A stretch of DNA of 64,000 bases from Spirochaetia bacterium (GTDB taxonomy: Bacteria > Spirochaetota > Spirochaetia > CADAEX01). The notes beneath the pieces are model-generated. The model ran no database searches. It was given only the letters and a program-made list of their open reading frames with translations, and was not told the DNA's origin. This document shows positions 4,736 to 48,406 of this stretch, piece by piece; the stretch's first letter is position 1; the number at the start of each line of letters is the position of its first letter. The position numbers were made by a program, and so were the translations under genes. The stretch is from positions 77,190 through 141,189 of the forward strand of contig JAKSTW010000001.1 of the NCBI GenBank assembly GCA_024402405.1, given 5' to 3'.

Positions 4736-5734
4736 TTACCCCCCCCCTTCACCAACAATCACTTCTTCAGACCATACACTGTCATTCTTGACCATGAGTT
4801 TCTGTTTTCCCTCCAGGGTCTCAGTATAATAGAATCTGTCACTTATATATGCCCAGATATCGTAAGTGCTGTAAATAAAATTATCAACACCCCGGTAATG
4901 ATAGATATCCTCAACCACCAGTTCACGCCTGAATGACAAATCCAGAAGCGGCACACCATCTGTATCAACTTTTTTACCATGCCATTGTGCCACAGTCGGG
5001 AAAATATCCAGCAGAGAGCAGATATTCTGAACTTTATCTACCTGCTTATCGCCCCTGTTATGAATAAACAGCGTTATATTTGTCCGAATAGGACTGACAT
5101 AGGCAAATCTATCACCATTCCTCACATGATCGCCTTTCAGCATACATCCATGATCGGAGAAGATCACAATTTTATCAAAAAAATCATTTCCGACAGCATC
5201 CAGCAGCATATCCATGCATCTGAAAAGATGTTCCTGACCTACAGCATCAGCCTCATCATGGCTTACCACAGAGCCGCAGGAATAAATATCAACAGCATCA
5301 TGATAATCATCAAAACCAGCATAGACACACAGGTCATCATTTCTGTCATTTCCAGCCTTGTCTATGAGAGTCTTATAATCAAAGACGATCTCCGCATAAC
5401 GGTCAAAACCAAATGGAACAATTCCTTCTTTCGGACTGAAAGAATATGGCGAGGCATAATAATAATTTTTATATCCCTCAGATGCCAGGAATTTAAAAAT
5501 ATTATTTTTTTCTGCATCCATAAAATAATATGGCCACTGACCGCACTTTGTGCATCCATTCTCCGCAGGATAGAGACCAGTATAAAAACATGCCATTGCC
5601 CGCGGTGTCTCAGGAGCCGGAGTATAAGCTGATGTATACCAGGTACCTCCCAGACGGCTGAATATCTTATAGACTGCTCCATTCTCAACTTTATCAGGCC
5701 GGAGCATATCACAGAAGAAAAAAAGAATTTTCAT
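4736..5734 (-). CDS. Alkaline-phosphatase-superfamily enzyme, type-I phosphodiesterase/NPP-like (soluble; no signal peptide or TM)
   Basis: 332 aa; ILFFFCDMLRPD resembles the NPP metal-site motif (SFDGFRADY); TGLYPAENG resembles NPP TGLYPESHG; SDHG metal-binding motif present (IVIFSDHGCML). C-terminus ...GEGGG is encoded by a G9 tract that directly abuts the stop codon. Confidence 0.5.
   Translation of the reverse strand: MKILFFFCDMLRPDKVENGAVYKIFSRLGGTWYTSAYTPAPETPRAMACFYTGLYPAENGCTKCGQWPYYFMDAEKNNIFKFLASEGYKNYYYASPYSFSPKEGIVPFGFDRYAEIVFDYKTLIDKAGNDRNDDLCVYAGFDDYHDAVDIYSCGSVVSHDEADAVGQEHLFRCMDMLLDAVGNDFFDKIVIFSDHGCMLKGDHVRNGDRFAYVSPIRTNITLFIHNRGDKQVDKVQNICSLLDIFPTVAQWHGKKVDTDGVPLLDLSFRRELVVEDIYHYRGVDNFIYSTYDIWAYISDRFYYTETLEGKQKLMVKNDSVWSEEVIVGEGGG
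4739..4747. repeat. C9 (G9 on coding strand) homopolymer encoding the terminal Gly residues of CDS 4736..5734, directly abutting its stop codon
   Basis: Seen directly: ...attaCCCCCCCCCttcacc; coding strand reads GGT GAA GGG GGG GGG TAA. Confidence 0.85.
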
Positions 5735-6948
5735 TTACCGCTCCCGGATTTTTTCTTTTTCCAGATAACATTGTTATACATAAACCAATTATATGGCAAT
5801 ACCAGAAATATAACAGAACCTATCATGGAGAGCTGTCTTACCAGCACATTGTCTGCAAATATACGGGTAAAAACGCCTACCACACCAAATTCTATGATGA
5901 TGGCACCCATGGAAGTAAGATTGAATCTCAGAAACCGCAGGAATATATTATCTTTTCTCTGAAAATTCTTCTTCGAGAAAGTCCAGCAGTTGTTCAGAAT
6001 GAAATTACTGCAGATACTGAGCTCTGTAGCCAGACCGGCAGCCCAGGCAGATGCACTGCAGAGAAGCCGACAGTTTTCAATCCGTCCGCGGAACCAGGAA
6101 GCAATGCTCTCACCTGATCCAGCCCGGAAAACCTCAAGGAAAATGGCATTGACCAGAAAACCGATAAACCCGACTATGGCAAATTTCATAAACCTGACAG
6201 TTCCAGGATCTTTCAGACGAAGAAGACACACTGTCTTAAGGATCTCAAAAGGAGTCTGTCCTGTGATTTTTGACACTCCTTCCTCGCGAAGTTTGAAATC
6301 CAGCGGAATCTCTTTGACCTTTGCACCGGCCTTGATTTTCTTAAAGAGCCATTCCAGCTTATAACCGAATCCCCTTGAATATACATGCTCATAATCAACT
6401 TTATTCAGCAGAGTTGTCCTTGTGGCCTTAAGCCCGGTAGTCGGATCCGTGACCTTAAAAAAATCTTTTGTAGGGAAGAACAGGATGACCCGGGCTGTAA
6501 AACCACCGGCTACAGTGAAAAACATCCGTTTGAATCCCCAGGAAGCAGGAAACCCGCCGCCCTTGACCCGTCTGGAACCAAGAATATAGTCATAGCCATT
6601 ATCCAGTTCTTTCAGCAGTAAAGGAATCGTCTCAGGGGGATGCTGGAAATCACCGTCAAATTCAATAACAGCATCTGCACCAAGTTTATCCACAGCATAT
6701 TTAAATCCTTTGATATAGGCTGCGCCGATCCCTTCTTTCTTCTGCTCCACCAGCAGTTCAAGATCGGGATAAGATTTCTGTTTTTCCCTGACCACATCAG
6801 ATGTACCATCAGGTGAATTTCCATCCACCACCAGCACCTTCACATTCCAGCCATCCACCGGTAATATCTTCTGGAAAAGATGATCTGCCATCCTGGCAAT
6901 GGAATCTTTCTCATTATATGTAGGAATAACTATTACTGCTTTTTCCAT
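5731..6948 (-). CDS. Polyprenyl-phosphate glycosyltransferase (GT2, DPM1/ArnC-like) fused to a C-terminal GtrA-like membrane domain
   Basis: 405 aa; N-terminus VIVIPTYNEKDSI...VVDGNSPDGT is GT2 family (DXD); the C-terminal ~120 aa has 4 TM helices typical of GtrA. Confidence 0.6.
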   Translation of the reverse strand: MEKAVIVIPTYNEKDSIARMADHLFQKILPVDGWNVKVLVVDGNSPDGTSDVVREKQKSYPDLELLVEQKKEGIGAAYIKGFKYAVDKLGADAVIEFDGDFQHPPETIPLLLKELDNGYDYILGSRRVKGGGFPASWGFKRMFFTVAGGFTARVILFFPTKDFFKVTDPTTGLKATRTTLLNKVDYEHVYSRGFGYKLEWLFKKIKAGAKVKEIPLDFKLREEGVSKITGQTPFEILKTVCLLRLKDPGTVRFMKFAIVGFIGFLVNAIFLEVFRAGSGESIASWFRGRIENCRLLCSASAWAAGLATELSICSNFILNNCWTFSKKNFQRKDNIFLRFLRFNLTSMGAIIIEFGVVGVFTRIFADNVLVRQLSMIGSVIFLVLPYNWFMYNNVIWKKKKSGSGK

Positions 6949-7907
6949 GTGTACTTCTTATACCAGTCAATAAACTCTTTTATTCCATCCTTCAGATCAA
7001 CAGAAGGGGAATATCCGAAATCAGCTGACAGCCTGGAAACATCTGCAAATGTCTCATGCACATCACCGGCCTGCATCGGCAACATATTCAGGACAGCTTT
7101 TTTTCCCAGTCCCGCCTCGATATATCCTATGAAATCCATAAGTGACTCCGGCTTTCCGCGGCCTATGTTATAAATCCGGTAATTATCCTTTTCCTGGAAA
7201 TCAGAGAATAAAATTCTGACTATACCGGCAACAACATCATCCACATAAGTGAAATCCCGTTTCATATCACCGTAGTTATACACATCAATGGGTTTTCCAG
7301 CTGAAATTTTATCCGCAAATTTAAAGTAAGCCATATCAGGTCTGCCAAAAGGACCATATACAGTGAAAAAGCGGAGTCCCACTGTTTTCAGACTGTACAT
7401 ATCAGAATATACGTGTGCCATGAGTTCATTAGCTTTTTTGGTGGCAGCATAGAGACTAACAGGGCTTTCTGTCTTCTGATCCTCAGAAAATGGCTGCACA
7501 TCATTGCCACCATAGACACTGGAACTGCTGGCATAAACCAGCGGACATTTATGATGATGGGCAATTCCCTCCAGAAGATTCAGGAAACCATAAACATTGC
7601 TGTCAATGTATGTATATGGATTCTTAATGGAATATCGAACTCCGGCCTGTGCCGCCAGATTGCATACGACATCGAATCTCTCATTCTCAAGAAGTTCAGC
7701 CAGAGCATCTTTTTCTCCCAGATCCATCCTGAAAAAACGGAAATCAGGATTCTGGCTCCGCAGTTCTGACAGTCTGAGATTTTTCAGCTCCACATCGTAG
7801 TAGGAATTCATGTTATCCAATCCCACCACTTCGCAATTCATATCAAAAAGTCTTCTGCAAAGATGGAATCCGATAAATCCAGCAGCACCTGTAACAAGTA
7901 TTTTCAT
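6933..7907 (-). CDS. NAD-dependent UDP-glucuronate 4-epimerase (extended SDR)
   Basis: MKILVTGAAGFIGFHL Rossmann motif; YAATK catalytic motif (SLYAATKKANELMAHVY); 324 aa; strongly resembles Cap1J/WbnF-type UDP-GlcA epimerases; sits near ugd. Confidence 0.65.
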   Translation of the reverse strand: MKILVTGAAGFIGFHLCRRLFDMNCEVVGLDNMNSYYDVELKNLRLSELRSQNPDFRFFRMDLGEKDALAELLENERFDVVCNLAAQAGVRYSIKNPYTYIDSNVYGFLNLLEGIAHHHKCPLVYASSSSVYGGNDVQPFSEDQKTESPVSLYAATKKANELMAHVYSDMYSLKTVGLRFFTVYGPFGRPDMAYFKFADKISAGKPIDVYNYGDMKRDFTYVDDVVAGIVRILFSDFQEKDNYRIYNIGRGKPESLMDFIGYIEAGLGKKAVLNMLPMQAGDVHETFADVSRLSADFGYSPSVDLKDGIKEFIDWYKKYTWKKQ

Positions 7908-9139
7908 ATTGATTCCCTCAAAATCTCTACCAGCTGGCGGGCAGCAACCTCACCTGCATGGCTGAAATTATAAACTTCCTCAGCTTTGATCTTCCGTATT
8001 TTATCACGGCAAACATCAACTCTATCATATTCTTCCCTTATAATTCTGTCCAAAACCGGAATCTCATCGGATGTGACGATCCTGGTTATCTCTCTGCTTT
8101 TCTCCAGATCCCAGACTCTGCCACCATCAACATCCAGCACATCATAACCACCCAGTTCATATTCAGCATTGACCAGGAAAATAGGACGCTCAAAAAGAAA
8201 TGCATAATCAAAAATCACACCGGATATATCGGTCACCATAACATGACTTCTGGCCATACTTGCCGCGGCAGTCCTGTTTCTGTCCAGCTCTATAAGGCTG
8301 TTATCTTTTATCTTGGCCTCCACTGCGGCAATCGTCTCTTTGTCCGAGACATACATCTGGGGATGGGGACGGAAAATGACGCGGATCCCGGCAGAGGAGA
8401 GCACATCTATAATTTTTGTACCATATCTGACGACAGAACTTCGTTCTCCCCAGGCTGGGGCATACAGCACTGTAAGCTCATTTTCCTGGGTCTGTGGAAG
8501 CTTTTTCAGTTCCTCCAGCATATAATCAAAATAAGTGCATCCAGTGTCAAGAAGCCTCTTAGCCCTCTCATGCCTGTTCTTTTCTATACTTCGGATACTC
8601 TCCTTCTGATACGGACCTGTGCACAGCAGAGTGTCGTAATAATCAAAGGCATACATCTCATACATGCCGATATCAGCTACAGCATGAAACAGATGGACAT
8701 ATTCTTTCACATGCTTTGACCGTTTAAGCATATACACATCCAGCTGAGGTGTCGTGGAAACAACAACTTTGGCTTTCAGGCTGTTCATATATGAGATCGT
8801 CATAAGTTCCTTGCCGGGACAGACAGGAACCACATTTTTCAAATCAGAACTGAAGACCGGATCATTTTTATCAGATGTCACAAAGCCATATCTGATGCCA
8901 TATTTATCCAAGGCCCTGAGCACAGGATAAAAAACCTGCCAGTACCGGCTTCCCTCTGACTGGAACACCAGATCAGGAAGCTGCTTCACTGTCCCTTTTT
9001 TCCCCATGAAAACTCTGCTCCGCAGTGAATACCAGAAACCGCGCAAAGCAAATAGCACTGTAGTGGTGATGCCCACAACAGCATAGAGCAGAAGAGAACC
9101 GGTACCAGGATCAAGATAGAGAAGTGAGAAATGCATCAT
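7904..9139 (-). CDS. TagF/TagB-family CDP-alcohol:polyol-phosphate transferase (CDP-glycerol glycerophosphotransferase-like), copy 1
   Basis: 411 aa; N-terminal TM anchor then a GT-B-like domain with FRPHPQ and DYAFL motifs typical of the Glyphos_transf (TagF) family; ATGA overlap with the upstream YidC-AP fusion gene. Confidence 0.65.
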   Translation of the reverse strand: MMHFSLLYLDPGTGSLLLYAVVGITTTVLFALRGFWYSLRSRVFMGKKGTVKQLPDLVFQSEGSRYWQVFYPVLRALDKYGIRYGFVTSDKNDPVFSSDLKNVVPVCPGKELMTISYMNSLKAKVVVSTTPQLDVYMLKRSKHVKEYVHLFHAVADIGMYEMYAFDYYDTLLCTGPYQKESIRSIEKNRHERAKRLLDTGCTYFDYMLEELKKLPQTQENELTVLYAPAWGERSSVVRYGTKIIDVLSSAGIRVIFRPHPQMYVSDKETIAAVEAKIKDNSLIELDRNRTAAASMARSHVMVTDISGVIFDYAFLFERPIFLVNAEYELGGYDVLDVDGGRVWDLEKSREITRIVTSDEIPVLDRIIREEYDRVDVCRDKIRKIKAEEVYNFSHAGEVAARQLVEILRESI

Positions 9140-12000
9140 TTCAGCACCTCCCAGTTCTGCGGATCAAAAATGTTGTCATGAACCTCGTAGATATCAAAAT
9201 CAGCATTGCCAGTCCTCAAAAACTTGGAAGATGAATCATACCGGACAGTAGTTACAATCCTATTATCCGGAATAATCACAGGAATATCATCAACCGCATT
9301 TTTCAAAAACTTTGACGCATCGCTGGAACACATCAGTTTATCGCTTTTCTTTAATTCATCACAAGAAGAAAATTTTTTTACCATAAGAAGAGAATTCAAT
9401 CGACTATTTATTTTAGAGCTAACTAAAGGGTTGTCATTTTCATAATCATTCCCATGATCTGACAACAAAATTATATATGTATTGTCATAAATCCCATTAG
9501 CTTTTAACCAATTACACCATTGAACAAATGACCTAATAAATTCCAAAGCGCTGTAATATGCACTATTTCCTGCATAATAGCTATTTTTATTTTTATCTGG
9601 AAATTTTCCTTCAGCAACAAGAGTTCCATTATCATCAACCCCATATGGGCTGTGTGGAAGGCTGTTATGAAAATATTTAAATGTATTATTTTCTATCTCA
9701 ATATTCGAAATTTCAGGAAGTAACTTCATAAATCCATAATTTTTTAATACATGCTCACGGACAGACCAATATAAAGCAGAAGTTGAAAAAATAAACCAAC
9801 AACTGTCATTATAAATCACTGGTTTCAGGAAATATGGTGAATTCTGAAAAATAGAAAGCATTATAAAAAGATGTCCTTGATTTATCCAATTAACGTTTTT
9901 GCTTCCACTATAGTATTTCTGTTCCCAGATTTTTCCAAAAATATCAGAATCGGTACTGACAGTTCCTTTAAGCGTATCTTTTTCCAAAGATGAAGATCCA
10001 GGATTTACAACAGCAATTGAATAACCATGATTAGAAAAATTATCAAACATAATCCGAGCAGACTCCTGAATAAGTTCGTTACCATTTTTCCCCATTTTAG
10101 TCATGGCTATAGGCAGATACTCTTCTCCGGCAAAAATAGACGGCATGGAACATACTGTTTTCCAAGAAGCTGCAACTGTATTCCTGTACCATGTAAATCC
10201 ACTCAGGATCTGTTCATATTCAGGATTTTCCTCAATAATGCGCTGCATATATCCGCCGGAGAACATATCCGCTACAAACAGCACCACATTCTTGCCAGTT
10301 CTGGAATAGCCGTTTATGACATCATTATCAGCAGGGATCTCAACCAATTCTTTTTCAGGAGGCAGATACATATCCGCAGAACACAGATATTTCACAGTTT
10401 TAATACCTGTAAGTATCAGAAGGCAGCAACATATCACAGCAACCACATTCCTGCACTGAACCAAATAATGCCTGATAAAAACCACTGACAGTACAGAAAG
10501 ACAACCAACAACAAGCAGATCACGTATCAGCAGAAACAATGATCTATCCTCAAGTTTTTCTGCCATGCTAAGCATGGTCTTGTCCAGTTCCCCGTAATTT
10601 CCAGGGAAAATATATCTGTAGACTATCACAGCCATAACAAGGAACATAGAGACTGCGGCCATAGCATGACGTCCGGACTTATCAGCAAAATTAAAAATAA
10701 GGAATGATAAAAGGATCAGACACAGGAATACAGGTATATCTGAAAACAGAAGATTCCATATAGAAATACCAGTCTCAGCAGGAGAAGAGAGAAAAATCTG
10801 AACAGGCCATACCAGGGTCACCAGACCGGCAAGAAACAGGACATTCCAGATATAAAGGCTTTTTATATTTTTATCATCTGTGCGACCCACAATATCTTTT
10901 TTCCCCAGAAGATATGCTGTCGCCATATAGATCAATATATCCGCAGATATGGCTGCAATAAAAATAATTTTCTTCAGAAGAGGGCCATCAGCATCCTGTA
11001 ATTTGAGAATAAAACCTGTCCCTGAAACAGCCAGAAACAGAAGCCCTGAAAAAAGTACTTTCACAAAAGGAGCAATGCTGCTTCTTTTCTGTCTGAAATT
11101 CCGATACCAGCACCACAGAAATATAAATACCAGAATAAAAGCAAGCAATGCTATGCCATAAAACAGATGTTCAAACTGTCTTTTATGAAAGATCAATGCA
11201 CGGCACTGAAAAACAAACAGCAGGAAAACCCCAAGTGCAGTACAGAAACCAGGAGTCAGGCATGTGCATACCTCGTCCTTTATCATTCTGATATAGTCTC
11301 TGAGACCTTTTTCATTTTCGTCAGGCACATACTTCTCGTGAGGGAACAGCCGCAGGAAGATAAGGCTCTTTCCCACAGAAAACACATTGTTCATAGTCCA
11401 GTAGAGAACCAGTGCGGACGGACTTCCATAAAGCAGCAGCAGGAAAACTCCGGCCATTACATACAGTTCCACAATATCACGGAACCGGCTCCCCTTCATG
11501 TAGATGCTGGAAGAGACAATGTTTATCAGGGTCATCGCTACCGGAAGGGCGTTGATACCGAATATAAGCCCATCTGGTCTGGCAAAGTCATTTATGAACC
11601 ACCAGCTGACACCTCTGTATGGCTCATAATGGCTCAGAAGATGATACGCAGCAAAGAAAAAAGGTATCTGTATCAGCAGTCCGAAAGATGTTCTGAATGA
11701 CGATGCGGCAGTATATCCCTCCAGCCGGTGAGTAGCTTTGGTAAGACAATACCGTTTCTGACCGCTATAGTATTTCTTGATATGATCAAGCCGCCGCTTC
11801 ATACGTTTTTCCACAGCCTGTTCCTTGCGTTTCCACACCTCTGCTATGTAGAACAGCGGAAACATTATTATTGTGACACTGAGGCTGAGAAGTATGATGG
11901 AGACACCGAAATTTCCGGTCAGTTTCACATAACTGCAGAACAGGAAACTCAGAACAGTCTCTATCGGTCTGATTATGATCAGATATATAAATTTCAGCAT
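9136..12000 (-). CDS. Large membrane protein: YidC/Oxa1-like insertase core (N-term) + extra TM segments + alkaline-phosphatase-superfamily (LtaS/sulfatase-like) ectodomain, copy 1
   Basis: 954 aa. Residues ~25-215 align by eye with Bacillus SpoIIIJ/YidC: NFGVSIILLSLSVTIIMFPL, CL..LIQIPFFFAAYHLL, ALVLYWTMNNVFSVG. The YidC groove Arg is replaced by Thr. The central region has >=6 further TM helices. The C-terminus has NVVLFVADMFSGG and IILLSDHGNDYEN metal-site motifs. The protein ends ...NWEVLK. Confidence 0.6.
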   Translation of the reverse strand: MLKFIYLIIIRPIETVLSFLFCSYVKLTGNFGVSIILLSLSVTIIMFPLFYIAEVWKRKEQAVEKRMKRRLDHIKKYYSGQKRYCLTKATHRLEGYTAASSFRTSFGLLIQIPFFFAAYHLLSHYEPYRGVSWWFINDFARPDGLIFGINALPVAMTLINIVSSSIYMKGSRFRDIVELYVMAGVFLLLLYGSPSALVLYWTMNNVFSVGKSLIFLRLFPHEKYVPDENEKGLRDYIRMIKDEVCTCLTPGFCTALGVFLLFVFQCRALIFHKRQFEHLFYGIALLAFILVFIFLWCWYRNFRQKRSSIAPFVKVLFSGLLFLAVSGTGFILKLQDADGPLLKKIIFIAAISADILIYMATAYLLGKKDIVGRTDDKNIKSLYIWNVLFLAGLVTLVWPVQIFLSSPAETGISIWNLLFSDIPVFLCLILLSFLIFNFADKSGRHAMAAVSMFLVMAVIVYRYIFPGNYGELDKTMLSMAEKLEDRSLFLLIRDLLVVGCLSVLSVVFIRHYLVQCRNVVAVICCCLLILTGIKTVKYLCSADMYLPPEKELVEIPADNDVINGYSRTGKNVVLFVADMFSGGYMQRIIEENPEYEQILSGFTWYRNTVAASWKTVCSMPSIFAGEEYLPIAMTKMGKNGNELIQESARIMFDNFSNHGYSIAVVNPGSSSLEKDTLKGTVSTDSDIFGKIWEQKYYSGSKNVNWINQGHLFIMLSIFQNSPYFLKPVIYNDSCWFIFSTSALYWSVREHVLKNYGFMKLLPEISNIEIENNTFKYFHNSLPHSPYGVDDNGTLVAEGKFPDKNKNSYYAGNSAYYSALEFIRSFVQWCNWLKANGIYDNTYIILLSDHGNDYENDNPLVSSKINSRLNSLLMVKKFSSCDELKKSDKLMCSSDASKFLKNAVDDIPVIIPDNRIVTTVRYDSSSKFLRTGNADFDIYEVHDNIFDPQNWEVLK

Positions 12001-12004
12001 GAGA

Positions 12005-12448
12005 TTATGGTCTTACAACATCTCCATTGACGATCTTTATGACCTGGGTCGTGGAAATGCCCTGTGTACGAGGAACCACGATCACACGCCCCTGCCTGTA
12101 CAGATGACCGAACCAGTATTTCACATATTCCATATCATCTGCGGCAATGAAAAGAGCATCTATTCTGTACTTATCCATAAAATCATTGACTGCCTTCTCA
12201 TCATAGGCATGAGGTCCCCAGCTGCGGTCCACAATAACTGCATCATCCACATATCTGCAGGATCTGATTATTTCCAGCCGCTCTTCCTGAGAGAATATCG
12301 GTCTTCTTTTTTCCTGTTCTGTGAGAGCATCGGAATCAATGGTAGCCACAACTTCTCTGAACATTTCCTTGGCCCGTTTAAGGAGCCTCACATGACCTAC
12401 ATGAAAAAGGTCAAAAACTCCATTCACAGCACATCTGTCGTATTTCAT
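12005..12448 (-). CDS. tagD: Glycerol-3-phosphate cytidylyltransferase (GCT/TagD family; CDP-glycerol synthesis)
   Basis: 147 aa; GVFDLFHVGHVRLL (HxGH), RYVDDAVIV and PRTQGISTT motifs match TagD/GCT-family cytidylyltransferases. Confidence 0.65.
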   Translation of the reverse strand: MKYDRCAVNGVFDLFHVGHVRLLKRAKEMFREVVATIDSDALTEQEKRRPIFSQEERLEIIRSCRYVDDAVIVDRSWGPHAYDEKAVNDFMDKYRIDALFIAADDMEYVKYWFGHLYRQGRVIVVPRTQGISTTQVIKIVNGDVVRP

Positions 12449-12449: not shown

Positions 12450-13757
12450 TTATCTTATTCCCACTCCAATATATTTAAAGCCTGTATCTTCAATTATCTT
12501 TCTGTTGTAAATATTACGCAAATCTGCAAAAACATTGCCCTTCATGATGGAATGAATCTTCTCCACATCCAGTGCCCGATACTGATTCCACTCGGTGAGG
12601 ATAACCACTGCATCAGCACCCTCGCAGGTTTCATATGGATTATCCAGATACTTGACTTCAGCAGGAAGAAGTTTTCTGGCCTCTTTCATTCCTTCAGGAT
12701 CACAGGCCTGCACTGCAGCACCTGCCTTGAGCAATTCAGGAACAATGACCAGTGAAGGGGCTTCCCGCATATCATCGGTTTCCGGCTTGAATGTCAGTCC
12801 CAGGATGGCAATCGTTTTTCCTCTGACATCACCGCCAAGAGCAGTCCTGATCTTATCCACCATCTTCAGCTTTTGGTTATAATTGACTTCTGTCACAGAT
12901 TCCAGAATACGCGGTTCCAGACCATTATCATGGAAAATTCTGATAAGTGCAGAAACATCTTTAGGGAAACATGATCCGCCATAACCAGGCCCGGCATGGA
13001 GGAATTTGGAACCGATACGTCTGTCCAGTCCCATTCCCTTGGACACATCCCTGATATCCGCACCGGTCTTCTCACACAGCCCAGATATCTCATTGATAAA
13101 AGATATTTTTGCAGCAAGAAAAGCATTGCTGGCATATTTTATAAGCTCTGCTGTCTCCAGATTGGTCATCACGATCGGAGTTTCCAGAAGATACAATGGC
13201 CTGTAGAGCTCTTTAAGTATGGCTTTGGCTCTCTCGCTCTCAGCCCCCAGAACCACTCTGTCAGGACGCATGAAATCATTTATGGCAGAACCTTCCCGCA
13301 AAAACTCAGGATTGGAGGCAATATCAAAATCCGCATCCGGATTTGTCTCTTTGATAAGCTGATATACTGTCTTGGCAGTTCCTACAGGAACAGTACTTTT
13401 ATCAACTACAACAGTATATCCCTTCAGATGCTGAGCTATCTCTTTGGCCGCAGCAAAAACATAGGTCAGATCGGCATGACCGTCACCATGGCGGGAAGGT
13501 GTTCCAACCGCAATGAAAACAGCATCAGACTCCTCAACATAAGGAGCATATTCCATGGAAAAATTCAGACGTCCGGCTTTAACATTTCTTAAAACCAGCT
13601 CATCCAGCCCCGGCTCATAAATAGGTATCATCCCCTGCTCCAGGGCACCTATCCGTTCCTGGCTTTTATCAATGCATGTCACATCCCATCCGAATTCAGC
13701 AAAGCAGGCACCTGAAACAAGACCTACATAACCAGTTCCGATAACTGAAATTTTCAT
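12450..13757 (-). CDS. ugd: UDP-glucose 6-dehydrogenase
   Basis: 435 aa; MKISVIGTGYVGLVSG NAD motif, catalytic GGSCFPKD; full-length match to UDP-glucose/GDP-mannose dehydrogenase family. Confidence 0.85.
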   Translation of the reverse strand: MKISVIGTGYVGLVSGACFAEFGWDVTCIDKSQERIGALEQGMIPIYEPGLDELVLRNVKAGRLNFSMEYAPYVEESDAVFIAVGTPSRHGDGHADLTYVFAAAKEIAQHLKGYTVVVDKSTVPVGTAKTVYQLIKETNPDADFDIASNPEFLREGSAINDFMRPDRVVLGAESERAKAILKELYRPLYLLETPIVMTNLETAELIKYASNAFLAAKISFINEISGLCEKTGADIRDVSKGMGLDRRIGSKFLHAGPGYGGSCFPKDVSALIRIFHDNGLEPRILESVTEVNYNQKLKMVDKIRTALGGDVRGKTIAILGLTFKPETDDMREAPSLVIVPELLKAGAAVQACDPEGMKEARKLLPAEVKYLDNPYETCEGADAVVILTEWNQYRALDVEKIHSIMKGNVFADLRNIYNRKIIEDTGFKYIGVGIR

Positions 13758-13768: not shown

Positions 13769-15013
13769 TTATTTCGATCCAAAACCTGTCAGAATAGTCT
13801 TCAGCGTCTTCATGACGATAAGGACATCCAGCCAGAATCCCATATATTTGATATAATAAAGATCATAACTTAACTTCTCTTCTGTTTCTTCCACACCGGC
13901 AGCATATCCCTGCACCACCTGCGCCCAGCCAGTGATCCCAGGAGAAGTCAGATGACGGTATGCATAGAATGGTATCTCTTTCTCAAATTCCCTGACAAAA
14001 GTCACCTGCTCCGGACGTGGCCCGATAAGGCTCATATCCCCTTTCAGCACATTCACCAGCTGCGGCAGCTCATCTATCCTGAATTTCCGCAGAAATTTTC
14101 CCATAGGAATGATACGGCTGTCATTATCCACTGTAAACTTGGCACCCTGAGCCTCAGATTCAGTGATCATTGTCCTGAACTTATACATTCTGAATGGTTT
14201 GCCGCCACGGCCCATCCTCTCCTGGATAAAAAACGGAGAGCCCTTGGAATTGGCCTTGATGAGTATTACTGCAAAAAGTGAGAGCAGCAGAAAAACCGGA
14301 GAAAATATGATTATAGCCACACATTCTGCAAAATGCTTGAATGCAAAATAAAACTTCGGAATCTTAAATCCAGAGACAACTCCATCTGAAAGATGCTTCA
14401 ATGAAATGCGCCCTGTGACTTTCTCATATACTGTGGCAGCATGATAAATAGGAATATTTGTCAGGCTCACATTGGCAATGAAACGCATCCATTCAGGAGA
14501 TATCTTCTCGTGGTAATCAATTATGATTCCATCACAATGCCTGTGCATCTCAGGATGTTCCAGCAGTTCCCAGTGCCGTCCACCCTTTTTTGCCAGCTCA
14601 GTTCCAAGCCCTATAGGACATATCAGATAGAACATGCTTTTTGGATTTCGGTACAGGAAAAGTCCCAGTCCAATCCATACCACAGATATCAGATAGAATA
14701 TTACCAGGTACTTTCTGGAATAATAGACTCTTCCGATAGCAATGGCAGACAGCAGCACGGCCATTATTATGGTGACAAGGAAAATTGCGATGCTCAGCTG
14801 TTCACGGAAAGAGAAACGCTTTATCTTCAGGGAAAGAAGTCCGGCAGCAAGATATGCCAGGACTGTCAGGCTGAGAAATGTCCTGCGATAAATATAACGC
14901 CAGAATATCAGATCATGGTATACAAAGAAATTGCATACAAACAGCGTAATGATCAATCCACCTAAAATCCACACCAAAGCTTTTATCATGGAACTGTCAA
15001 TCTTATTTTTCAT
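13769..15013 (-). CDS. Undecaprenyl-phosphate sugar-1-phosphate transferase (WbaP/CpsE-type initiating polyprenyl glycosylphosphotransferase)
   Basis: 414 aa; N-terminal TM helices and a C-terminal bacterial sugar transferase domain (SPFFIQERMGRGGKPFRMYKFRTM...DELPQLVNVLKGDMSLIGPRP). Confidence 0.75.
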   Translation of the reverse strand: MKNKIDSSMIKALVWILGGLIITLFVCNFFVYHDLIFWRYIYRRTFLSLTVLAYLAAGLLSLKIKRFSFREQLSIAIFLVTIIMAVLLSAIAIGRVYYSRKYLVIFYLISVVWIGLGLFLYRNPKSMFYLICPIGLGTELAKKGGRHWELLEHPEMHRHCDGIIIDYHEKISPEWMRFIANVSLTNIPIYHAATVYEKVTGRISLKHLSDGVVSGFKIPKFYFAFKHFAECVAIIIFSPVFLLLSLFAVILIKANSKGSPFFIQERMGRGGKPFRMYKFRTMITESEAQGAKFTVDNDSRIIPMGKFLRKFRIDELPQLVNVLKGDMSLIGPRPEQVTFVREFEKEIPFYAYRHLTSPGITGWAQVVQGYAAGVEETEEKLSYDLYYIKYMGFWLDVLIVMKTLKTILTGFGSK

Positions 15014-16145
15014 ATTTTTCCCTCATCCTGTCTTTCACACAGGTAAAAGCAAAAGCAAAACACAGAAGCGGAATAAAGATATTAGTACGATACCGTATAG
15101 CCGCCCCTGAATTCATCACACCCTGGACATACTGGGCAAAAATTACAAACATCATGGAACTCATTCCCAGTACAAGCCACTGATAGAATACCCTAAAATG
15201 ACTATATAATGCTATAGGAACATCATGCAGCATATAGATAAAAACCATGAACAGAAAACCGCTTTCAATGAAAGTGCACAGATGCATTACAGAGAGTCGG
15301 CATTCACCTAAAGTCGGTCCCCACAGAGATATAGGAATCCACACAGGCATTTTTCTGAAAAAATCAAATTGCTGGACAAACATAGGCTCTCTGGTAGATT
15401 TGGCACTCACGCTGTAGATCCTGTGCAGCTTATTAATGGCATAATTATCTATTTTATAACGATATAGATAAATGACTCCTATGCAGCACAAAAACATAAG
15501 CACAAGAAGAAGCAGATCCACATACCACTGCAATCTAAGATGCTGCCGTATAAAAATATAGAACAGACTGACACATAAAAATGGTATATAGTAGAATTTT
15601 ATCACAGTTATAAAATAAACAGCCAGGATCAGGGAGACTGAAAATCCAACTTTCTCACCTTTGAAAAATTTGATGATCTCTGCACATATCACTCCCATGG
15701 AAAAAACTATGAATGCCTCTTTTCCTGCCAGAGACGACCAGATCGCAAAGGATGGGGTGAAACACATAAGAATAAGGACATAGTACATTCTGGTGTTGGC
15801 AGTTCTGGCGGCTTTCAGAAATTTATATATTCCATAATATGCCAGCATAGCAAAAACCAGGTGCACCAATATGCGGAAATGAAGAATACTGCTGACGCTG
15901 CTGACAATAAGCCTGGGCAGAAGAACCCAGTCTGTGAATACCCGGTATCCATGGTTTCTGAAAAGCTCTATGGGAGTTCCGCGCATATAAAGGCTGGTAT
16001 CTCCGAGTCGGTGGATCATTCTGGAGACAACAAATTCCCCCATGAAAGACATGAGAAGCCTATAGAACAAAAGAATCTTTATGAGATTATCAGGAGAAAA
16101 TATTTTTTTTAAAGTGCCAGTCTCTGCCTTGTCCAAATTCATCAC
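15003..16145 (-). CDS. Polytopic membrane protein, putative Wzy/EpsG-like polysaccharide polymerase
   Basis: 380 aa, ~10 TM helices, no soluble domain; operon context with WbaP and Wzx; family assignment by context and topology only. Confidence 0.35.
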   Translation of the reverse strand: MMNLDKAETGTLKKIFSPDNLIKILLFYRLLMSFMGEFVVSRMIHRLGDTSLYMRGTPIELFRNHGYRVFTDWVLLPRLIVSSVSSILHFRILVHLVFAMLAYYGIYKFLKAARTANTRMYYVLILMCFTPSFAIWSSLAGKEAFIVFSMGVICAEIIKFFKGEKVGFSVSLILAVYFITVIKFYYIPFLCVSLFYIFIRQHLRLQWYVDLLLLVLMFLCCIGVIYLYRYKIDNYAINKLHRIYSVSAKSTREPMFVQQFDFFRKMPVWIPISLWGPTLGECRLSVMHLCTFIESGFLFMVFIYMLHDVPIALYSHFRVFYQWLVLGMSSMMFVIFAQYVQGVMNSGAAIRYRTNIFIPLLCFAFAFTCVKDRMREKYEK

Positions 16146-16195
16146 CTTGCTAAAAAACTTATAATATTGTTATAATAATACTGTAGGAAAAAATA
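16146..16195. promoter_or_regulatory. Divergent promoter region; extended -10 TGTTATAAT (16169-16177) 18 nt upstream of the ABC ATPase ATG
   Basis: 50-bp AT-rich gap between divergent genes; TGnTATAAT at 16169-16177; AGGAA SD-like at 16186-16190. Confidence 0.4.
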
Positions 16196-16897
16196 ATGTC
16201 CATAATAAAACTGGAAAATGTAATAAAATCATATCCACTGGGAAAAACCATGGTCACAGCCATCAAGGGCGTTTCCTTTGAGATCGCGGAAGGAGATTTC
16301 GCATCCATCATCGGTCCTTCAGGCAGCGGTAAATCAACCATTCTGAATATGATAGGATGCATCGATGTCCCGACAGAAGGAAAAGTCATCATCAATGGAC
16401 AGACAACCACCGGACTTACAGACAGAGAGATCACAAACCTCCGTCATGACGTGCTTGGATTCATATTCCAGTCTTTCAACCTGCTGCCGGTCCTCAATGT
16501 ATATGAGAACATTGAATTTCCATTTTTGATCAGCAGGAAAAAATATTCTGCAGCAGAAAAAAAAGAGCAGAAAGAATATATAGACCACCTTATCGACGCT
16601 GTAGGACTTTCACAGTGGATCACCCACAAACCGGCTGAACTTTCAGGAGGTCAGCGTCAGCGTGTAGCCATAGCCAGAGCACTGGCAACAAAACCAAAAG
16701 TTGTCCTGGCCGACGAGCCGACAGCCAATCTTGACAGCAAGACAGGTGAGGATATCATCGCGCTGATGAAAAAGATCAACAAAGAGATAAAAACAACCTT
16801 TGTTTTCTCCACTCATGACAAAAATATCTTTTCCATAGCCGATCATGTCATCAGACTGAAAGACGGCATCGTTGCAGAAGATTTCAGACAGAATTAA
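16196..16897 (+). CDS. ABC transporter ATP-binding protein (LolD/MacB/FtsE-type)
   Basis: 233 aa; Walker A GPSGSGKST, signature LSGGQRQRVAIARAL, Walker B VVLADEPT. Confidence 0.85.
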   Translation: MSIIKLENVIKSYPLGKTMVTAIKGVSFEIAEGDFASIIGPSGSGKSTILNMIGCIDVPTEGKVIINGQTTTGLTDREITNLRHDVLGFIFQSFNLLPVLNVYENIEFPFLISRKKYSAAEKKEQKEYIDHLIDAVGLSQWITHKPAELSGGQRQRVAIARALATKPKVVLADEPTANLDSKTGEDIIALMKKINKEIKTTFVFSTHDKNIFSIADHVIRLKDGIVAEDFRQN

Positions 16898-18087
16898 AAT
16901 TTAGAAGTAAGCTCGATAAACAAAGTGAATCCCAGTTTGGTCTTGATAGGAAATTCCTCGTAGAAGTCCTTATCCAACTCTTTGTCACCATAATTCCATG
17001 GAACGGCAAATCTGAATTTTATATGCTTCCATGGTGATATGGTCAGTCCTGCTATAAACTGCCCTGACTCTGTCTGCATAGAATGAAGCCATTTGAGACC
17101 AAATCCTACAGGACTTCCGAACAGATTGTCCACGGAAGTGGCCAGACCAAAACAGTTATCCAGCTCATTCTTATCACGGCCATCAAAATAATATTCACCA
17201 TATAATTTTATACGCTGGCTCTCGTTGGGTTTAGACCACTCTTTATAAAAACCGGCCAGAGCCTCATAAGTCGTCTCCCCATCATAGTTTATGATCCCAT
17301 CGGCCAAAAAATCAGTACCGAAAACAACTGTCTTTATGGAACCCAGAAACCGCTGTCCATCCTCTCTGTTACTGGTGGCAGCAAATGTGAAATTTATATC
17401 TCCGATAGTCTTATCCACTTTTCCGGCATAGGTCAGATCATCACGCCGGAGCTTCTTCACAGGATTGCTCTTATGTCTGTTTTTGTAGAGTATTACAAGA
17501 GAAACACCGTCCAGCATATTCGGAAAAGAAGCACGCAGAGAAGTTCCGTCCTCGCAGTCATCCATAAAATCGCCAGGTCTGAACAGTCGTCCCTGTCCCC
17601 ACTTCATATAACACTTTCCGAAACGGAAGAAAGCCATGTCTTTCAGATTGTAATCACACCAGAGCTCATCGGCCTCTATGTCTCCCCAGGTATCATTTCC
17701 CTTGTCAGACTCCAGCTCAGTCTGGAGCTTACCAAACAGCTGCAGGGTAGGATCAGGAGTGATATCAAAAGTAACATATGCTTTTGAATAGGCTCCTGCT
17801 TCTTTTTCAGGTTTAGACTGGAGAGGCTTTTCATCCCATCCGATACCACCACCGCCGCGCATCAGCAGATACCCTCCGATACGAACTTTGTCACTTTTCT
17901 CAGCCTGCTGTTTGTAATCAATATCGACAGGCTTCTCTATGACAACATCTTCCTGTGGATCTTCAAAAATTGAGTCAAAGGCTTCCTGCAGCTCATTGCC
18001 TTCTTCTGCGGACAATACAAGTCCACACAGAAAAAAAATCAGAGAAAGCCATAATTTCAACAGTCGAAAATTCTTTCTATCAGCCAT
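16894..18087 (-). CDS. Secreted protein, putative outer-membrane beta-barrel (C-terminal Phe)
   Basis: 397 aa; N-terminal signal peptide (LWLSLIFFLCGLVLSAEE); alternating amphipathic pattern in C-terminal half, ends ...IELTSKF (terminal aromatic typical of OMPs). Family not recognised. Confidence 0.4.
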   Translation of the reverse strand: MADRKNFRLLKLWLSLIFFLCGLVLSAEEGNELQEAFDSIFEDPQEDVVIEKPVDIDYKQQAEKSDKVRIGGYLLMRGGGGIGWDEKPLQSKPEKEAGAYSKAYVTFDITPDPTLQLFGKLQTELESDKGNDTWGDIEADELWCDYNLKDMAFFRFGKCYMKWGQGRLFRPGDFMDDCEDGTSLRASFPNMLDGVSLVILYKNRHKSNPVKKLRRDDLTYAGKVDKTIGDINFTFAATSNREDGQRFLGSIKTVVFGTDFLADGIINYDGETTYEALAGFYKEWSKPNESQRIKLYGEYYFDGRDKNELDNCFGLATSVDNLFGSPVGFGLKWLHSMQTESGQFIAGLTISPWKHIKFRFAVPWNYGDKELDKDFYEEFPIKTKLGFTLFIELTSKF

Positions 18088-18862
18088 TAGTCCTGTTTAT
18101 TCTCTCCAGATATTCCTTAGTATACAGAGAATCAGGCTGCTTGTTAAGAGAAGGATCTTTAATTGTAACTGTTGTACGCTCATAGATCTTCTTTCCCTCA
18201 ACCTCTCTGAACACCATATGATCCTGGATCATTATAGTGGCAGGAATCCAACGGCTGTTCACCTGTTGATAACTCGGAATGGCAGAAGATCTCATAAGCT
18301 GGTTGGAAAGGCTGTAATCCTCAATTTTTCTGACCAGATTATCTTCAGAGACCCAGATTTTTTCCCGAGGGAAAGATACTGAATTGGTGTTTGCCTTCAG
18401 ATCAAAGACCTTGCAGTTGAACTTACCCAACTTTTCCTCTGTCACAGAGACGATATCATAATTTTTTGCATAATCGGATCCTGTAAAATCTGAAAGTCGG
18501 AATCCGGAATTCTCAAATCGTTCCTTGGCACTTGTAAAAGTAAAACACTTGCCCACCGGATCATAAAGCCAGAGATTCTTACCAAGCTTGAGATATCCTT
18601 TTCCCTTGTCAGCTGAAGGCTGCAGGATCAGGATCAGAAACTGCTCGGACTTATCCCTTCGGAACATGGCTGCAACAGTTGTGGAAGCAGAACCGTTAGG
18701 ATCTTTTTTCACTATAGTATATTCTGCCGCCAGATCTGATTCCTCAAAATTTACCAGCTCATCAACTTTTCTCAGAATTTCCCTATCACTATCTGCAGCA
18801 AAAGCAGAAAACAAAATACATCCCATCAACAAAACTGCAATAATTAATTTTTTCATTTTCAA
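18080..18862 (-). CDS. LolA-like outer-membrane lipoprotein-sorting family protein
   Basis: 260 aa with signal peptide (MKMKKLIIAVLLMGCILFSAFA); ~250-aa periplasmic protein. Resembles the outer membrane lipoprotein-sorting protein family that co-occurs with FtsX-type permeases and a LolD-like ATPase. Confidence 0.5.
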   Translation of the reverse strand: MKMKKLIIAVLLMGCILFSAFAADSDREILRKVDELVNFEESDLAAEYTIVKKDPNGSASTTVAAMFRRDKSEQFLILILQPSADKGKGYLKLGKNLWLYDPVGKCFTFTSAKERFENSGFRLSDFTGSDYAKNYDIVSVTEEKLGKFNCKVFDLKANTNSVSFPREKIWVSEDNLVRKIEDYSLSNQLMRSSAIPSYQQVNSRWIPATIMIQDHMVFREVEGKKIYERTTVTIKDPSLNKQPDSLYTKEYLERINRTNG

Positions 18863-20148
18863 TCCTTTCTCAATGCTTCTGCCGGCGGCATCAGTGATGC
18901 CTTTTTGGCAGGTCCATAAGCTGCGGCCACCACAGCCACAATCATAAACAGCAGATTAAGGAATACAGTCCTGACACTTATAAAGTGCTGCAGATGTCCA
19001 TTCTCAGTGAACATTCCTGCCACAGATATTCCCTTTAAATCAAACAACCCGATCCCCCAGAAAGTTACAAGTCCCAGGAAGAACCCAGCCGCAGAGGCAA
19101 CCACGGCCAGCGCCGCCGCCTCATACAGAAAAATGCGCTTCACATCTCCAGCCTGCATTCCTATGGCCCTCATGGTTCCAATCTCTCTGGTCCGCTCATA
19201 GATCAGCACTCGGTATGTATTCAATATACCCATCATTACGATAAGAAGGAATACCACCAGAACAAAATATGTGCAGACAAGGAAAGCATCCAGAAGATTC
19301 TTCAGCTGCTCCAGCTGTGCCTCCACAGACATCACACCGACCTTCTCATTATCATTATTCCGGTTCGAGCTTCTGAAATCACTGAAATCTTTCCTTGAAA
19401 GTATCGGAGGGAAAACGTCATGATCCTCCGCAAATTTCATACGCAGTTTTTCTGTAAGCTTCGGTATGTCTGATCCCTCTTTAGTATATACGGCAATCTC
19501 GGTAGCCCAGTCTTCCGGCATATTCATCAAAGCATTCAAATCTGTGCGGTTCATATAAGCCGCATATCCGAATATACTGGTCTCATCAAAAATACCTTTG
19601 ACGACCATATAGGCCATATTATACTGACCGCTGATAGTCTTCAGATACAGGATCACATCATCACCAAGCCGGGCACCCAGCAGCCGGGCAGTCTCAGTGC
19701 TTATTATGATTCCGTTGCGTCCGTCCTCCCCTTTCATGCTGTCAATTCCACCGGCTACAAATGGGAGCTTCTCCAGTTCATTTCCCTCACTGTCAAAATC
19801 AGCACCTATCACTCTGAGCAGACGAAGGTAACTGCCGCCGAAGAAAATACGCACTTCCTTTCCATAATAAATGGTTCTAGGTGAAACTGTGCGGAAATGA
19901 ATCCCGGACTCATGGACTGTATCAAGAAAATCCTGGGTATTCTTAATTGAAAATCCTGTATTCTCAAATCCCTGGACTATTATATGACCTGAAAAATACC
20001 TGGCGGCCTTGGTCTTGATGGTCTCCAGCGCACCATAGGAAAGTCCTGTAAGCACTGTGATAAGCGCAAAACCTATGGCAATAGCCACCCCCATCAGTGC
20101 ATAACGTTTTCTCTGGAGGAAAAGATTCCTTAAAGCAAATCTGAACAC
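18859..20148 (-). CDS. ABC transporter permease, FtsX/MacB/LolCE family
   Basis: 429 aa; N-terminal TM, large periplasmic domain, C-terminal FtsX 3-TM bundle; MFRFALRNLFLQRKRYALMGVAIAIG is the classic family start. Confidence 0.75.
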   Translation of the reverse strand: MFRFALRNLFLQRKRYALMGVAIAIGFALITVLTGLSYGALETIKTKAARYFSGHIIVQGFENTGFSIKNTQDFLDTVHESGIHFRTVSPRTIYYGKEVRIFFGGSYLRLLRVIGADFDSEGNELEKLPFVAGGIDSMKGEDGRNGIIISTETARLLGARLGDDVILYLKTISGQYNMAYMVVKGIFDETSIFGYAAYMNRTDLNALMNMPEDWATEIAVYTKEGSDIPKLTEKLRMKFAEDHDVFPPILSRKDFSDFRSSNRNNDNEKVGVMSVEAQLEQLKNLLDAFLVCTYFVLVVFLLIVMMGILNTYRVLIYERTREIGTMRAIGMQAGDVKRIFLYEAAALAVVASAAGFFLGLVTFWGIGLFDLKGISVAGMFTENGHLQHFISVRTVFLNLLFMIVAVVAAAYGPAKKASLMPPAEALRKD

Positions 20149-22460: not shown

Positions 22461-22469
22461 AACATCCTC

Positions 22470-27015: not shown

Positions 27016-27049
27016 TTTTCCTCCTGTCTTTTATTTTAATCTTTTATTT

Positions 27050-28516: not shown

Positions 28517-28523
28517 ACAAACC

Positions 28524-43217: not shown

Positions 43218-43251
43218 ATTTACCTCAATATATTATTCATTTCTTCCGATA

Positions 43252-46087: not shown

Positions 46088-46214
46088 GAAAATTTCATTT
46101 TATAAAAGCAAAACGCCGCCGCAACAGGCTGTTTCCCAGAATAAAATGTTGTTCAAAGATAGAACAAGTTTATATCATTCTGCGAGGTTTTGCAATGAAA
46201 AAAGAAAATTTTAT

Positions 46215-48326: not shown

Positions 48327-48406
48327 TGAATTTATAATGTTCCAACCCTGATCTATATCCTTTGAGAGATAGGTACAATCACAGAAACATCGATAGCACC
48401 CATATA

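Follow-up and report, generated by a model that had tools for sequence, protein, structure and literature searches.

The 64,000-nt stretch of contig JAKSTW010000001.1 analysed here (positions 77,190 to 141,189 of the forward strand; assembly GCA_024402405.1, a Spirochaetia bacterium), referred to below as the window, contains a tightly packed operon on its minus strand, running from about 16145 down to 4736. Two genes of this operon are considered in detail. The first, named F, encodes a fusion of a YidC-like part, nine further transmembrane (TM) helices and a domain of the alkaline-phosphatase (AP) superfamily; the second, named T, encodes a TagF-like enzyme. A cytidylyltransferase gene lies directly upstream of F. 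The features of this central part are as follows.

12005-12448, minus strand: 147-aa cytidylyltransferase (PF01467, 75.5 bits).
9136-12000, minus strand: F, 954 aa (PF02096 at residues 31-215, PF00884 at residues 570-859).
11311-12000, minus strand: residues 1-230 of F, a YidC/Oxa1-like core of five TM helices with a cytoplasmic coiled-coil hairpin (PF02096, 82.6 bits, cut-off 35).
10327-11310, minus strand: residues 231-558 of F, nine predicted TM helices between core and ectodomain (helices 250-540 in the structural model).
9136-10326, minus strand: residues 559-954 of F plus the stop codon, an AP-superfamily domain of the LtaS/EptA/MCR-1/PbgA type (PF00884, 39 bits, cut-off 25).
9136-9152, minus strand: translational-coupling junction of F and T, with the Shine-Dalgarno sequence GGGAGGTG at 9145-9152, within the 3' end of F, followed by ATGA.
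7904-9139, minus strand: T, 411 aa (PF04464 at residues 121-327, 39.5 bits, cut-off 22.1).

Direct reading of the sequence placed the stop codon of the cytidylyltransferase gene (TAA) at 12005-12007, 4 nt from the F start codon, an ATG beginning at 12000; F ends and T begins within one ATGA at 9136-9139. The original prediction, which described three coupled genes separated by 4 nt or less, was correct in this respect.

An AlphaFold2 model of F (86 homologues; pLDDT 91.1, pTM 0.77) contained a five-helix YidC core, nine more TM helices (14 in total) and a globular domain starting at residue 559. The best Foldseek matches of F were MCR-1 (9nww), PbgA/YejM (6xlp/6v8q) and EptA (5fgn), followed by LtaS ectodomains (4uor/2w5r); the alignments with full-length MCR-1, PbgA and EptA extended over 600-680 columns. 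Residues D578, T615, D848 and H849 of the AP domain were invariant in all 86 homologues, and H783 in 85 of them. Since the four invariant residues correspond to the metal ligands and the Thr nucleophile of LtaS, EptA and GacH, the ectodomain should be catalytically active. In the standard YidC topology the C-terminus of the core is cytoplasmic; as nine more helices follow it in the model, we infer that the AP domain faces the outside. The proposal of an AP-superfamily ectoenzyme mounted on a YidC-like membrane part therefore holds, with an LtaS/EptA-like active site that is intact.

In having an N-terminal TM domain followed by an extracytoplasmic AP-fold domain, with the metal ligands and the Thr conserved, F resembles LtaS, GacH, OpgB and the EptA/MCR-1 enzymes. 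By analogy with them, a phospho-Thr intermediate and subsequent transfer to an outside acceptor would be expected. The membrane part is different: F has 14 TM helices, as against five in LtaS and EptA and 11 in GacH, and the first five are a YidC/Oxa1 core. The score of F against the LTA-synthase (lipoteichoic-acid synthase) equivalog NF053595 was 20.6 bits, with a cut-off of 970. The nine-TM region was the most variable part of F, with P399 and G470 as invariant residues, and a Foldseek search of PDB structures detected no exporter-like fold for the TM part.

The helices of the YidC-like part cover residues 31-77, 80-93, 106-123, 151-167, 173-190 and 195-218 in the model. This part shares with the YidC/Oxa1 insertases the five-TM core, the cytoplasmic coiled-coil hairpin and the QxPxF, DLxxxDP and N-rich TM5 motifs; the family profile of F aligned with both the E. 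coli YidC (residues 347-546) and that of B. halodurans, and the match to TIGR03592 (yidC_oxa1_cterm) reached 79.4 bits, slightly below the cut-off of 84.3. Unlike these insertases, however, the F core lacks a preceding TM helix or signal sequence and a ribosome-binding tail, and cores of this type are fused to, or located beside, glycan-modifying enzymes. The groove arginine used to recognise YidC insertases (R366 in E. coli, R72 in B. halodurans) is also missing: R366 aligned opposite Thr43 of F, a position occupied by T in 58, N in 20 and S in 7 of 85 homologues, and by R or K in none. Several polar residues within the membrane were invariant (Q111, N160, T202, N204 and N205), while T157 was present in 85 of 86 sequences.

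In the AlphaFold2 model of T (pLDDT 84.1), residues 11-44 form a helix, and a basic stretch links it to a GT-B domain; this confirms the N-terminal TM anchor attributed to the TagF-like enzyme beforehand. The motif Y-[IL]-D-P-G-T-G-S at residues 8-15 (nt 9095-9118) was invariant in the family. Many distant homologues carry, directly ahead of this motif, a segment that resembles a signal peptide and ends in A-x-A; the motif is therefore predicted to lie on the outer face, with the catalytic domain in the cytoplasm. The solved structure nearest to T was that of TagF (3l7k_D; Foldseek E 1.6e-11). The single T sequence gave no match against PDB sequences; only the family profile reached Cps3D (8qoy, E 4e-10) and TagF (1e-5), together with TarL (2.6e-5), with the RPHPQ and DxSxxxxDY motifs aligned. 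R257-P258-H259-P260-Q261, D304, S306 and D311 of T were invariant and aligned to 'LRMH' and 'ITDYSSVMFDYGIL' of TagF. The score against the TarF equivalog NF041712 was 16.1 bits (cut-off 550).

T thus has in common with the PF04464 enzymes TagB, TagF, TarF, TarL, Cps3D and Bcs3 the GT-B fold, the donor-site motifs, a cytoplasmic catalytic domain and cytidylyltransferase gene neighbours. It differs from them in its true N-out TM anchor with an invariant YLDPGTGS motif on the outer face, in its divergent acceptor-side half, and in being paired with F and not with TagGH/LCP or a capsule ABC exporter. Nothing pointed to polymerisation by T, one of the two activities that had been suggested for it.

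At least 1,209 homologues of F were found, and at least 585 loci or matches among GTDB species representatives (one genome per species). They occur in Spirochaetota, Desulfovibrionaceae, Sutterella, Rhodospirillaceae, many Bacillota, Coriobacteriia and Bacteroidota, the carriers including gut, rumen and oral Treponema, Brachyspira, Lachnospiraceae and Oscillospiraceae. The co-occurrence analysis proposed with the original prediction, which asked whether the fusion would mostly lack a TagF-like neighbour, was run in both directions. Among 80 loci selected through F, containing 104 complete F genes, a T gene was present on the same strand of the locus for 77 F genes. It was directly adjacent in 48 cases (25 downstream and 23 upstream; modal gap -4 nt) and elsewhere in the same array in the remaining 29, with the orders FT, TF, FFT, FTFTF and F-x-T; the array of Treponema denticola reads F-F-T-F-T-F. 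Conversely, among 80 metagenome loci selected through T, F was directly adjacent in 66 and nearby in six (72/80). The fusion thus does not mostly lack a TagF-like gene in its locus, and the idea was not refuted; about a fifth of the F genes have no T nearby. The T family is small (3,933 members among 1.84 billion representative proteins), so that adjacency to F by chance is negligible. In a deltaproteobacterium (L002) an overlapping F-T pair stands isolated among flagellar and chemotaxis (chemoreceptor) genes, outside any glycan locus. The pairing of F and T is more than chance or operon packing.

The closest syntenic relative of the window (L164, 528-15409) has the order Bac_transf, UDP-glucose dehydrogenase, 147-aa cytidylyltransferase, F, F and T. 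Public gene calls for this locus shorten both F genes to 'sulfatase' proteins and miss the YidC-like N-terminus. Two relatives that seemed to consist of the AP domain only (P0055 and P0056) were considered as natural YidC-less forms and discarded as gene-calling artefacts, since tblastn found the YidC-like part intact upstream (L164).

Searching the 1.84 billion representative proteins with the T profile revealed a second arrangement of the same modules. Two proteins, P0299 (1027 aa) and P0315 (1023 aa), consist of T, about five TM helices and an AP-like domain; hhalign matched the latter to the AP domain of F at a probability of 96% (E 2.7e-9) and brought all four catalytic motifs into line. 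A stand-alone gene for a 233-aa, Arg-less YidC-like protein was present just ahead of the T-TM-AP fusion, with a 7-nt overlap, at the loci of P0299 (L161) and of P0391 (L163), a cluster member of P0299. This stand-alone protein has N at the groove-arginine position, and its L161 copy passed TIGR03592 with 92.5 bits (cut-off 84.3). At the P0315 locus (L162), the end of the contig truncates a 145-aa open reading frame that shares 4 nt with P0315 and matched the YidC-like part of F in tblastn. Judging from these sequences, the three modules exist either as [YidC-TM-AP]+[T] or as [YidC]+[T-TM-AP]. The other T fusions found were one with a family 4 glycosyltransferase (GT4; P0261) and T proteins with C-terminal extensions containing no further Pfam domain; single-chain fusions of T to an F with its YidC-like part were absent from the T-profile matches.

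Conservation along F and T was uneven. In close relatives, identity was about 80% for T and 84% for the YidC-like part, falling to about 41% in the nine-TM region and 50% in the AP domain. One homologue, P0002, was 100% identical to F up to residue 558 (YidC-like part plus TM region) and 59% identical in the AP domain, a pattern that points to exchange of an AP cassette by recombination; such ectodomain swapping possibly serves antigenic or phage-receptor variation. In the tandem F copies of L164 (3534-9328) the N-domains were equally conserved. A mirror-tree analysis of 84 adjacent F-T pairs gave a correlation of 0.89 between T and the YidC-like part, higher than that of the YidC-like part with its own TM region or AP domain (0.82). 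The partial correlation between T and the YidC-like part, given the middle region and the AP domain, was 0.61 (matched by none of 500 permutations), and that between the TM region and the AP domain, given T and the YidC-like part, was 0.54; the remaining partial correlations were 0.16-0.20. F and T therefore comprise two evolutionary units, {T + YidC-like} and {TM + AP}. The YidC-like part had been described beforehand as a scaffold. A YidC-like membrane part it is, but the term probably undersells it, given that no other part of F is as well conserved and that it co-evolves with T.

These observations favour, with a confidence that falls a little short of even, the view that F and T form a conserved membrane machine of three modules, by which a nucleotide-activated head group, phospho- or phosphono-, would reach an outside acceptor. 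The coupling and the idea of an undescribed route, both part of the original prediction, are strongly supported, with the domain permutation and the T/YidC-like co-evolution arguing for one functional unit. Alternatively, T and F could be independent enzymes of one glycan-decoration pathway that are neighbours only through the polymer they share. T would then decorate a polyprenyl-linked repeat inside the cell, as TagB and TarF do, and F would add a head group derived from phosphatidylglycerol (PG) or phosphatidylethanolamine (PE) outside, like GacH, OpgB or EptA. This would suit the window operon, which is a Wzx/Wzy-type glycan locus (Bac_transf, UDP-glucose dehydrogenase, Wzx, LicD, GT2 and GT25), the T-GT4 fusion and the frequency of GT4 genes as neighbours, the existence of orphan F genes, and the fact that the characterised membrane AP-type transferases all use ordinary phospholipids. 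It leaves unexplained, however, why adjacency is near-obligate, in both gene orders and in unrelated loci and phyla, why a pair should stand alone amid the flagellar and chemotaxis genes of L002, why T-TM-AP fusions should be accompanied by a separate YidC-like gene, why T should co-evolve specifically with the YidC-like part, and why T should keep an invariant motif on its outer face. With T and F acting independently, the F-T linkage would be difficult to account for, and we regard this alternative as rather unlikely.

What the proposed three-module machine would carry can be approached through its neighbours. The 147-aa cytidylyltransferase belongs to the GCT/ECT/CCT family, with HVGH (HxGH) and RTQGISTT (RTxGISTT) motifs in its translation, and in the closest relatives (L003, L004 and L164) F is likewise immediately preceded by this gene. 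The enzyme had been labelled TagD, implying CDP-glycerol synthesis. This label was rejected as unproven: the score against the TagD equivalog TIGR01518 was 69.9 bits, far from the cut-off of 165.4, and the PDB matches to human ECT (3elb, 67.5 bits), B. subtilis TagD (1coz, 65.5 bits) and CCT (59.7 bits) were indistinguishable. The enzyme probably makes the CDP-activated donor.

When the 125 same-strand genes immediately next to F/T arrays were assigned to Pfam families, NTP_transferase families (19-21), GT4 (16) and class I/II aminotransferases (10) were the most frequent, followed by PF01467 cytidylyltransferases (CTP_transf_like, 9), HAD hydrolases (7) and phosphoenolpyruvate (PEP) mutase (5). 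The commonest immediate neighbours of F and T are donor-synthesis genes. A 2-kb gene recurring between F and T encodes a LicC-type nucleotidyltransferase fused to a HisC/CobD-like pyridoxal-phosphate enzyme. As a soft trend only, clades related to T1 (the T described above) tended toward PF01467 enzymes, and those related to T2, its paralogue in the window, toward LicC-type enzymes and PEP mutase. At one locus (L134, 2352-9285) the order was a PEP mutase-NTP_transferase fusion of the PntC type, T, a small methyltransferase and F. In the deltaproteobacterial locus L002 (8001-17328), a putative ABC importer for 2-aminoethylphosphonate (AEP), of the PhnS2/PhnU2 type, lies about 1 kb from the F-T pair on the opposite strand (362.7 and 581.8 bits, slightly below the cut-offs), with a PF01467 cytidylyltransferase gene next to it; this may be a salvage-fed version of the module. 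Because the donor-synthesis neighbours vary between loci, the nucleotide-activated head group that serves as cargo probably varies too (glycerol-phosphate, amino-alcohol-phosphate or aminoethylphosphonate) and is not specifically polyol phosphate, an assignment that, with donor genes differing even between related loci, proved too narrow. The donors of T probably include CMP-phosphonates and CDP-amino-alcohols.

The published account of phosphonate tailoring halts at CMP-AEP; the later steps are described as enigmatic, and LicD-like transferases have been proposed for them (PMC6697681). The Pnt pathway, in which PntC yields CMP-AEP, and the F/T module have points of contact: PntC-type fusions adjoin T in L134, PEP_mutase recurs among the neighbours, and T. 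denticola, a studied phosphonate producer, has F/T arrays. The gene order of L134 makes F and T candidates for the transfer steps beyond CMP-AEP. On the other hand, F and T do not appear in the published account (PMC6697681), the window is devoid of PEP mutase genes, and its first module has a PF01467 enzyme. A phosphonate donor for the window modules is accordingly not supported by the gene content, apart from a weak PhnW-like match beside the T paralogue T2 (see below).

The nature of the head group also bears on the idea that F and T might act as an LTA-like synthase and exporter. In such a system T would polymerise a poly(phospho-X) chain on a lipid anchor, the 14-TM part of F would export it and the AP domain would ligate or trim it, the product being a lipid-anchored glycolipid of spirochaetes that lack lipopolysaccharide (LPS). 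The best sequence and fold matches of T are indeed polymerases (Cps3D, TagF and TarL), and T. denticola, which carries an F/T array, has no LPS pathway and an unexplained glycolipid in its outer leaflet (PMC3285142). T, however, is a minimal GT-B domain of about 360 aa without the extra domains of known polymerases, the module is also found in monoderm Firmicutes, Coriobacteriia and Proteobacteria, many of the donor genes would give amino-alcohol or phosphonate head groups that are not polymerisable through a second hydroxyl, and the TM part of F yielded no exporter-like match. This makes a polymer synthase very unlikely.

In the favoured reading, F and T would work as a relay in four steps. 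In the first, the neighbouring nucleotidyltransferase (in the window, the 147-aa PF01467 enzyme) would make CDP-X or CMP-X in the cytoplasm. In the second, the membrane-anchored T would move P-X onto the hydroxyl of a lipid carrier in the inner leaflet; the simplest acceptor would be diacylglycerol or a glycolipid, yielding X-P-lipid. The polar, Arg-less groove of the YidC-like domain would then shift the lipid head group to the outer leaflet. Finally, by analogy with LtaS, GacH and EptA, Thr615 of the AP domain would attack the phosphodiester and free the lipid alcohol; P-X would be handed to a surface glycan or glycolipid and the lipid would go back to T, closing the cycle. T and the YidC-like part would thus be the conserved, donor-supply half of the machine, and the nine-TM region and the AP domain its variable, acceptor-specific half.

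The relay was drawn from the F-T linkage and two published findings. Characterised membrane AP-type transferases take the head group from a membrane lipid, with ordinary phospholipids as donors; LtaS and GacH obtain glycerol-phosphate from PG through a Thr intermediate and release diacylglycerol (10.1101/337519). In addition, phospholipid scrambling in vitro has been described for YidC and other insertases of the Oxa1 family (PMC11047089). The known AP-type enzymes use bulk PG or PE and need no CDP-alcohol-type transferase, whereas F is genetically tied to one. This linkage to T suggests that F has a dedicated donor lipid in place of PG or PE. The more specific idea contained in the third step, that a YidC/Oxa1 fold has been repurposed from protein insertion to head-group-specific lipid flipping within a closed lipid cycle charged by T and discharged by the AP domain, is possible but doubtful.

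The YidC-like module could instead be a private insertase, holdase or docking site that inserts or holds the N-out anchor of T, or that helps the TM-AP part to fold. T and the AP domain would still cooperate, with the intermediate crossing the membrane via Wzx or by spontaneous flipping. The YidC fold and its cytoplasmic hairpin are both retained, T has a single TM helix behind a short acidic N-tail (presumably comparable to Pf3-type YidC substrates), T co-evolves with the YidC-like domain, and the YidC-like module accompanies T in either fusion arrangement. All this would be in keeping with such a role. But the groove arginine thought to attract acidic N-tails is missing in 85 of 85 homologues, the anchor of T contributes nothing to the co-evolution by itself, a substrate of this kind is normally handled by the housekeeping YidC, and in roughly half of the distant T homologues a signal-peptide-like segment appears to be used instead. 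A role confined to insertion or docking was thus judged unlikely.

Several observations weigh against the proposed relay, or against the one-machine view as a whole. No T was within reach of 16 of the 104 F genes, which had at least 1.4 kb of flank on both sides, nor at 9 of the 41 loci with at least 5 kb of flank on both sides; F can thus probably use an ordinary phospholipid as donor, unless these genomes encode T at another place. In the opposite direction the exceptions were few: at loci with adequate flanks, only two T genes were true orphans lacking F. The lipid carrier is pure inference. The T-GT4 fusion P0261 and the frequent GT4 neighbours fit T acting on a lipid-linked sugar in the cytoplasm, in which case T would resemble TagB, TarF and the capsule polymerases. 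With an anionic lipid head group as cargo, retention of the groove arginine might be expected, and its loss is odd. The co-evolution of T and the YidC-like part could stem in part from both being slow-evolving and low in noise, and the N-terminal anchor of T showed no co-evolution beyond that of the catalytic domain (partial r 0.16).

In its overall logic, the proposed F/T machine would be analogous to three-component systems such as GtrA/GtrB/GtrC, CsbB/YfhO, ArnC/ArnEF/ArnT and DltABCD, which activate a substituent, load it on a carrier, translocate it and transfer it outside. Genes of this kind occur in its surroundings: the window operon contains a CsbB-like GT2-GtrA fusion, and the syntenic L164 contains YfhO. 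The parts are different, however, with a TagF-like enzyme in place of a GT2, a YidC-like domain in place of GtrA or ArnEF and an AP domain in place of a GT-C enzyme, and the cargo would be a phospho(no)-head group where theirs is a sugar or D-alanine.

No known wall-teichoic-acid or lipoteichoic-acid pathway has these parts act as one unit. F and T clearly belong to known superfamilies, but their combination is undescribed in the literature searched, where no paper was found linking YidC-like proteins with sulfatase/LtaS-like domains or TagF-like enzymes. In public records F is called 'YidC/Oxa1 family membrane protein insertase', a name that hides an intact LtaS/EptA-like active site, and T 'CDP-glycerol glycerophosphotransferase family protein'. 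If the proposed relay is real, it would correct a systematic mis-annotation and be a new export route for small phospho(no)-substituents spanning phyla, and would give the YidC fold its first non-insertase job in bacteria, matching the lipid scrambling by insertases. It would also provide concrete candidates for the missing transfer after CMP-AEP and for related phosphonyl tailoring, supply part of the unexplained glycolipid biosynthesis of LPS-less spirochaetes and, through the swapping of AP cassettes, account for variation in surface charge and antigenicity.

The window contains a second pair of the same type, together with its own accessory genes (21591-29354).

23696-26269, minus strand: F2, an 857-aa YidC-like + TM + AP fusion, paralogue of F (PF02096, 70.6 bits).
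22470-23699, minus strand: T2, a 409-aa TagF-like paralogue of T (PF04464, 33.8 bits, cut-off 22.1).

F2 was 39% identical to F in the YidC-like part and 24% over the remainder. Its PF00884 score (24.7 bits) was slightly below the gathering cut-off of 25 bits; in the family alignment, it keeps every active-site invariant. T2 was 34% identical to T over the full length and also bears YIDPGTGS at its N-terminus; it had no NCBIfam match. The F2 stop and the T2 start overlap by 4 nt, as in F and T, and the two junctions are arranged alike, with a C-terminal ...NWEVLK peptide common to both. Downstream of the pair is a gene for a 289-aa protein with a weak match, limited to its C-terminal half, to TIGR03301 (2-aminoethylphosphonate aminotransferase; 34.6 bits). 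Upstream are genes for a GT2, a B12-binding radical-SAM enzyme (HpnJ-like, 394 bits; PhpK-family P-methyltransferase, 133 bits) and a LicD. These accessory genes hint at a phosphonate or methylated head group.

The remaining genes of the operon with F and T are listed below in transcription order.

15003-16145, minus strand: polytopic membrane protein with no Pfam match, the first gene to be transcribed.
13769-15013, minus strand: Bac_transf initiating phosphoglycosyltransferase.
12450-13757, minus strand: UDP-glucose dehydrogenase.
6933-7907, minus strand: NAD-dependent sugar-nucleotide epimerase/dehydratase (PF01370, 191.6 bits).
5731-6948, minus strand: GT2-GtrA fusion, CsbB-like.
4736-5734, minus strand: sulfatase-like protein without TM helices.

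A scan of the window for promoters and terminators gave a promoter-like site at 16175-16202 and no other usable operon boundary. The T stop and the epimerase start overlap in an ATGA at 7904-7907. The epimerase is part of the same operon as F and T and lies outside the conserved module, its position being occupied by YfhO in L164; past T, that locus has YfhO (GT-C) and Wzx where the window has the epimerase and the GT2-GtrA fusion. The product of 4736-5734 (332 aa; PF00884, 44.2 bits in two stretches) has neither a TM helix nor a signal peptide, and an AP-fold enzyme in the cytoplasm is unusual for a glycan locus. Beyond a 317-nt gap past 4736 there are genes for a LicD, a Wzx flippase, a second LicD and a GT25.

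The two glycan clusters are separated by a segment (16196-21603) with genes for a divergent ABC ATPase (16196-16897, plus strand), a LolA-like protein, two FtsX/MacB-type permeases and a 397-aa protein with no Pfam match; the set resembles a lipoprotein or lipid export system. Further along, the locus is broken by non-glycan genes for a DUF4143/AAA_14 ATPase and for a Schlafen AlbA_2 + HATPase_c_4 + Fic-like_C protein (29351-30577 and 32445-33794), between which are located a short-chain dehydrogenase/reductase gene (30714-31727) and one for a TarI-like IspD cytidylyltransferase (31724-32440). The region 34000-48500 has a low GC content (0.33-0.36, as against about 0.43 elsewhere) and encodes a Stealth-family protein, several GT2s, a second Wzx-like flippase, an ABC-2 exporter pair, a MarR regulator and a 731-aa protein with a CotH kinase domain; CotH is likewise found between F genes in L057. 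This region may be a horizontally acquired, variable glycan cassette. The end of the window (54697-64000) is a replication-origin neighbourhood, with parB, parA, gyrA and gyrB on the minus strand, dnaA on the plus strand (61422-62777) and a change of sign in the GC skew at about 62 kb.

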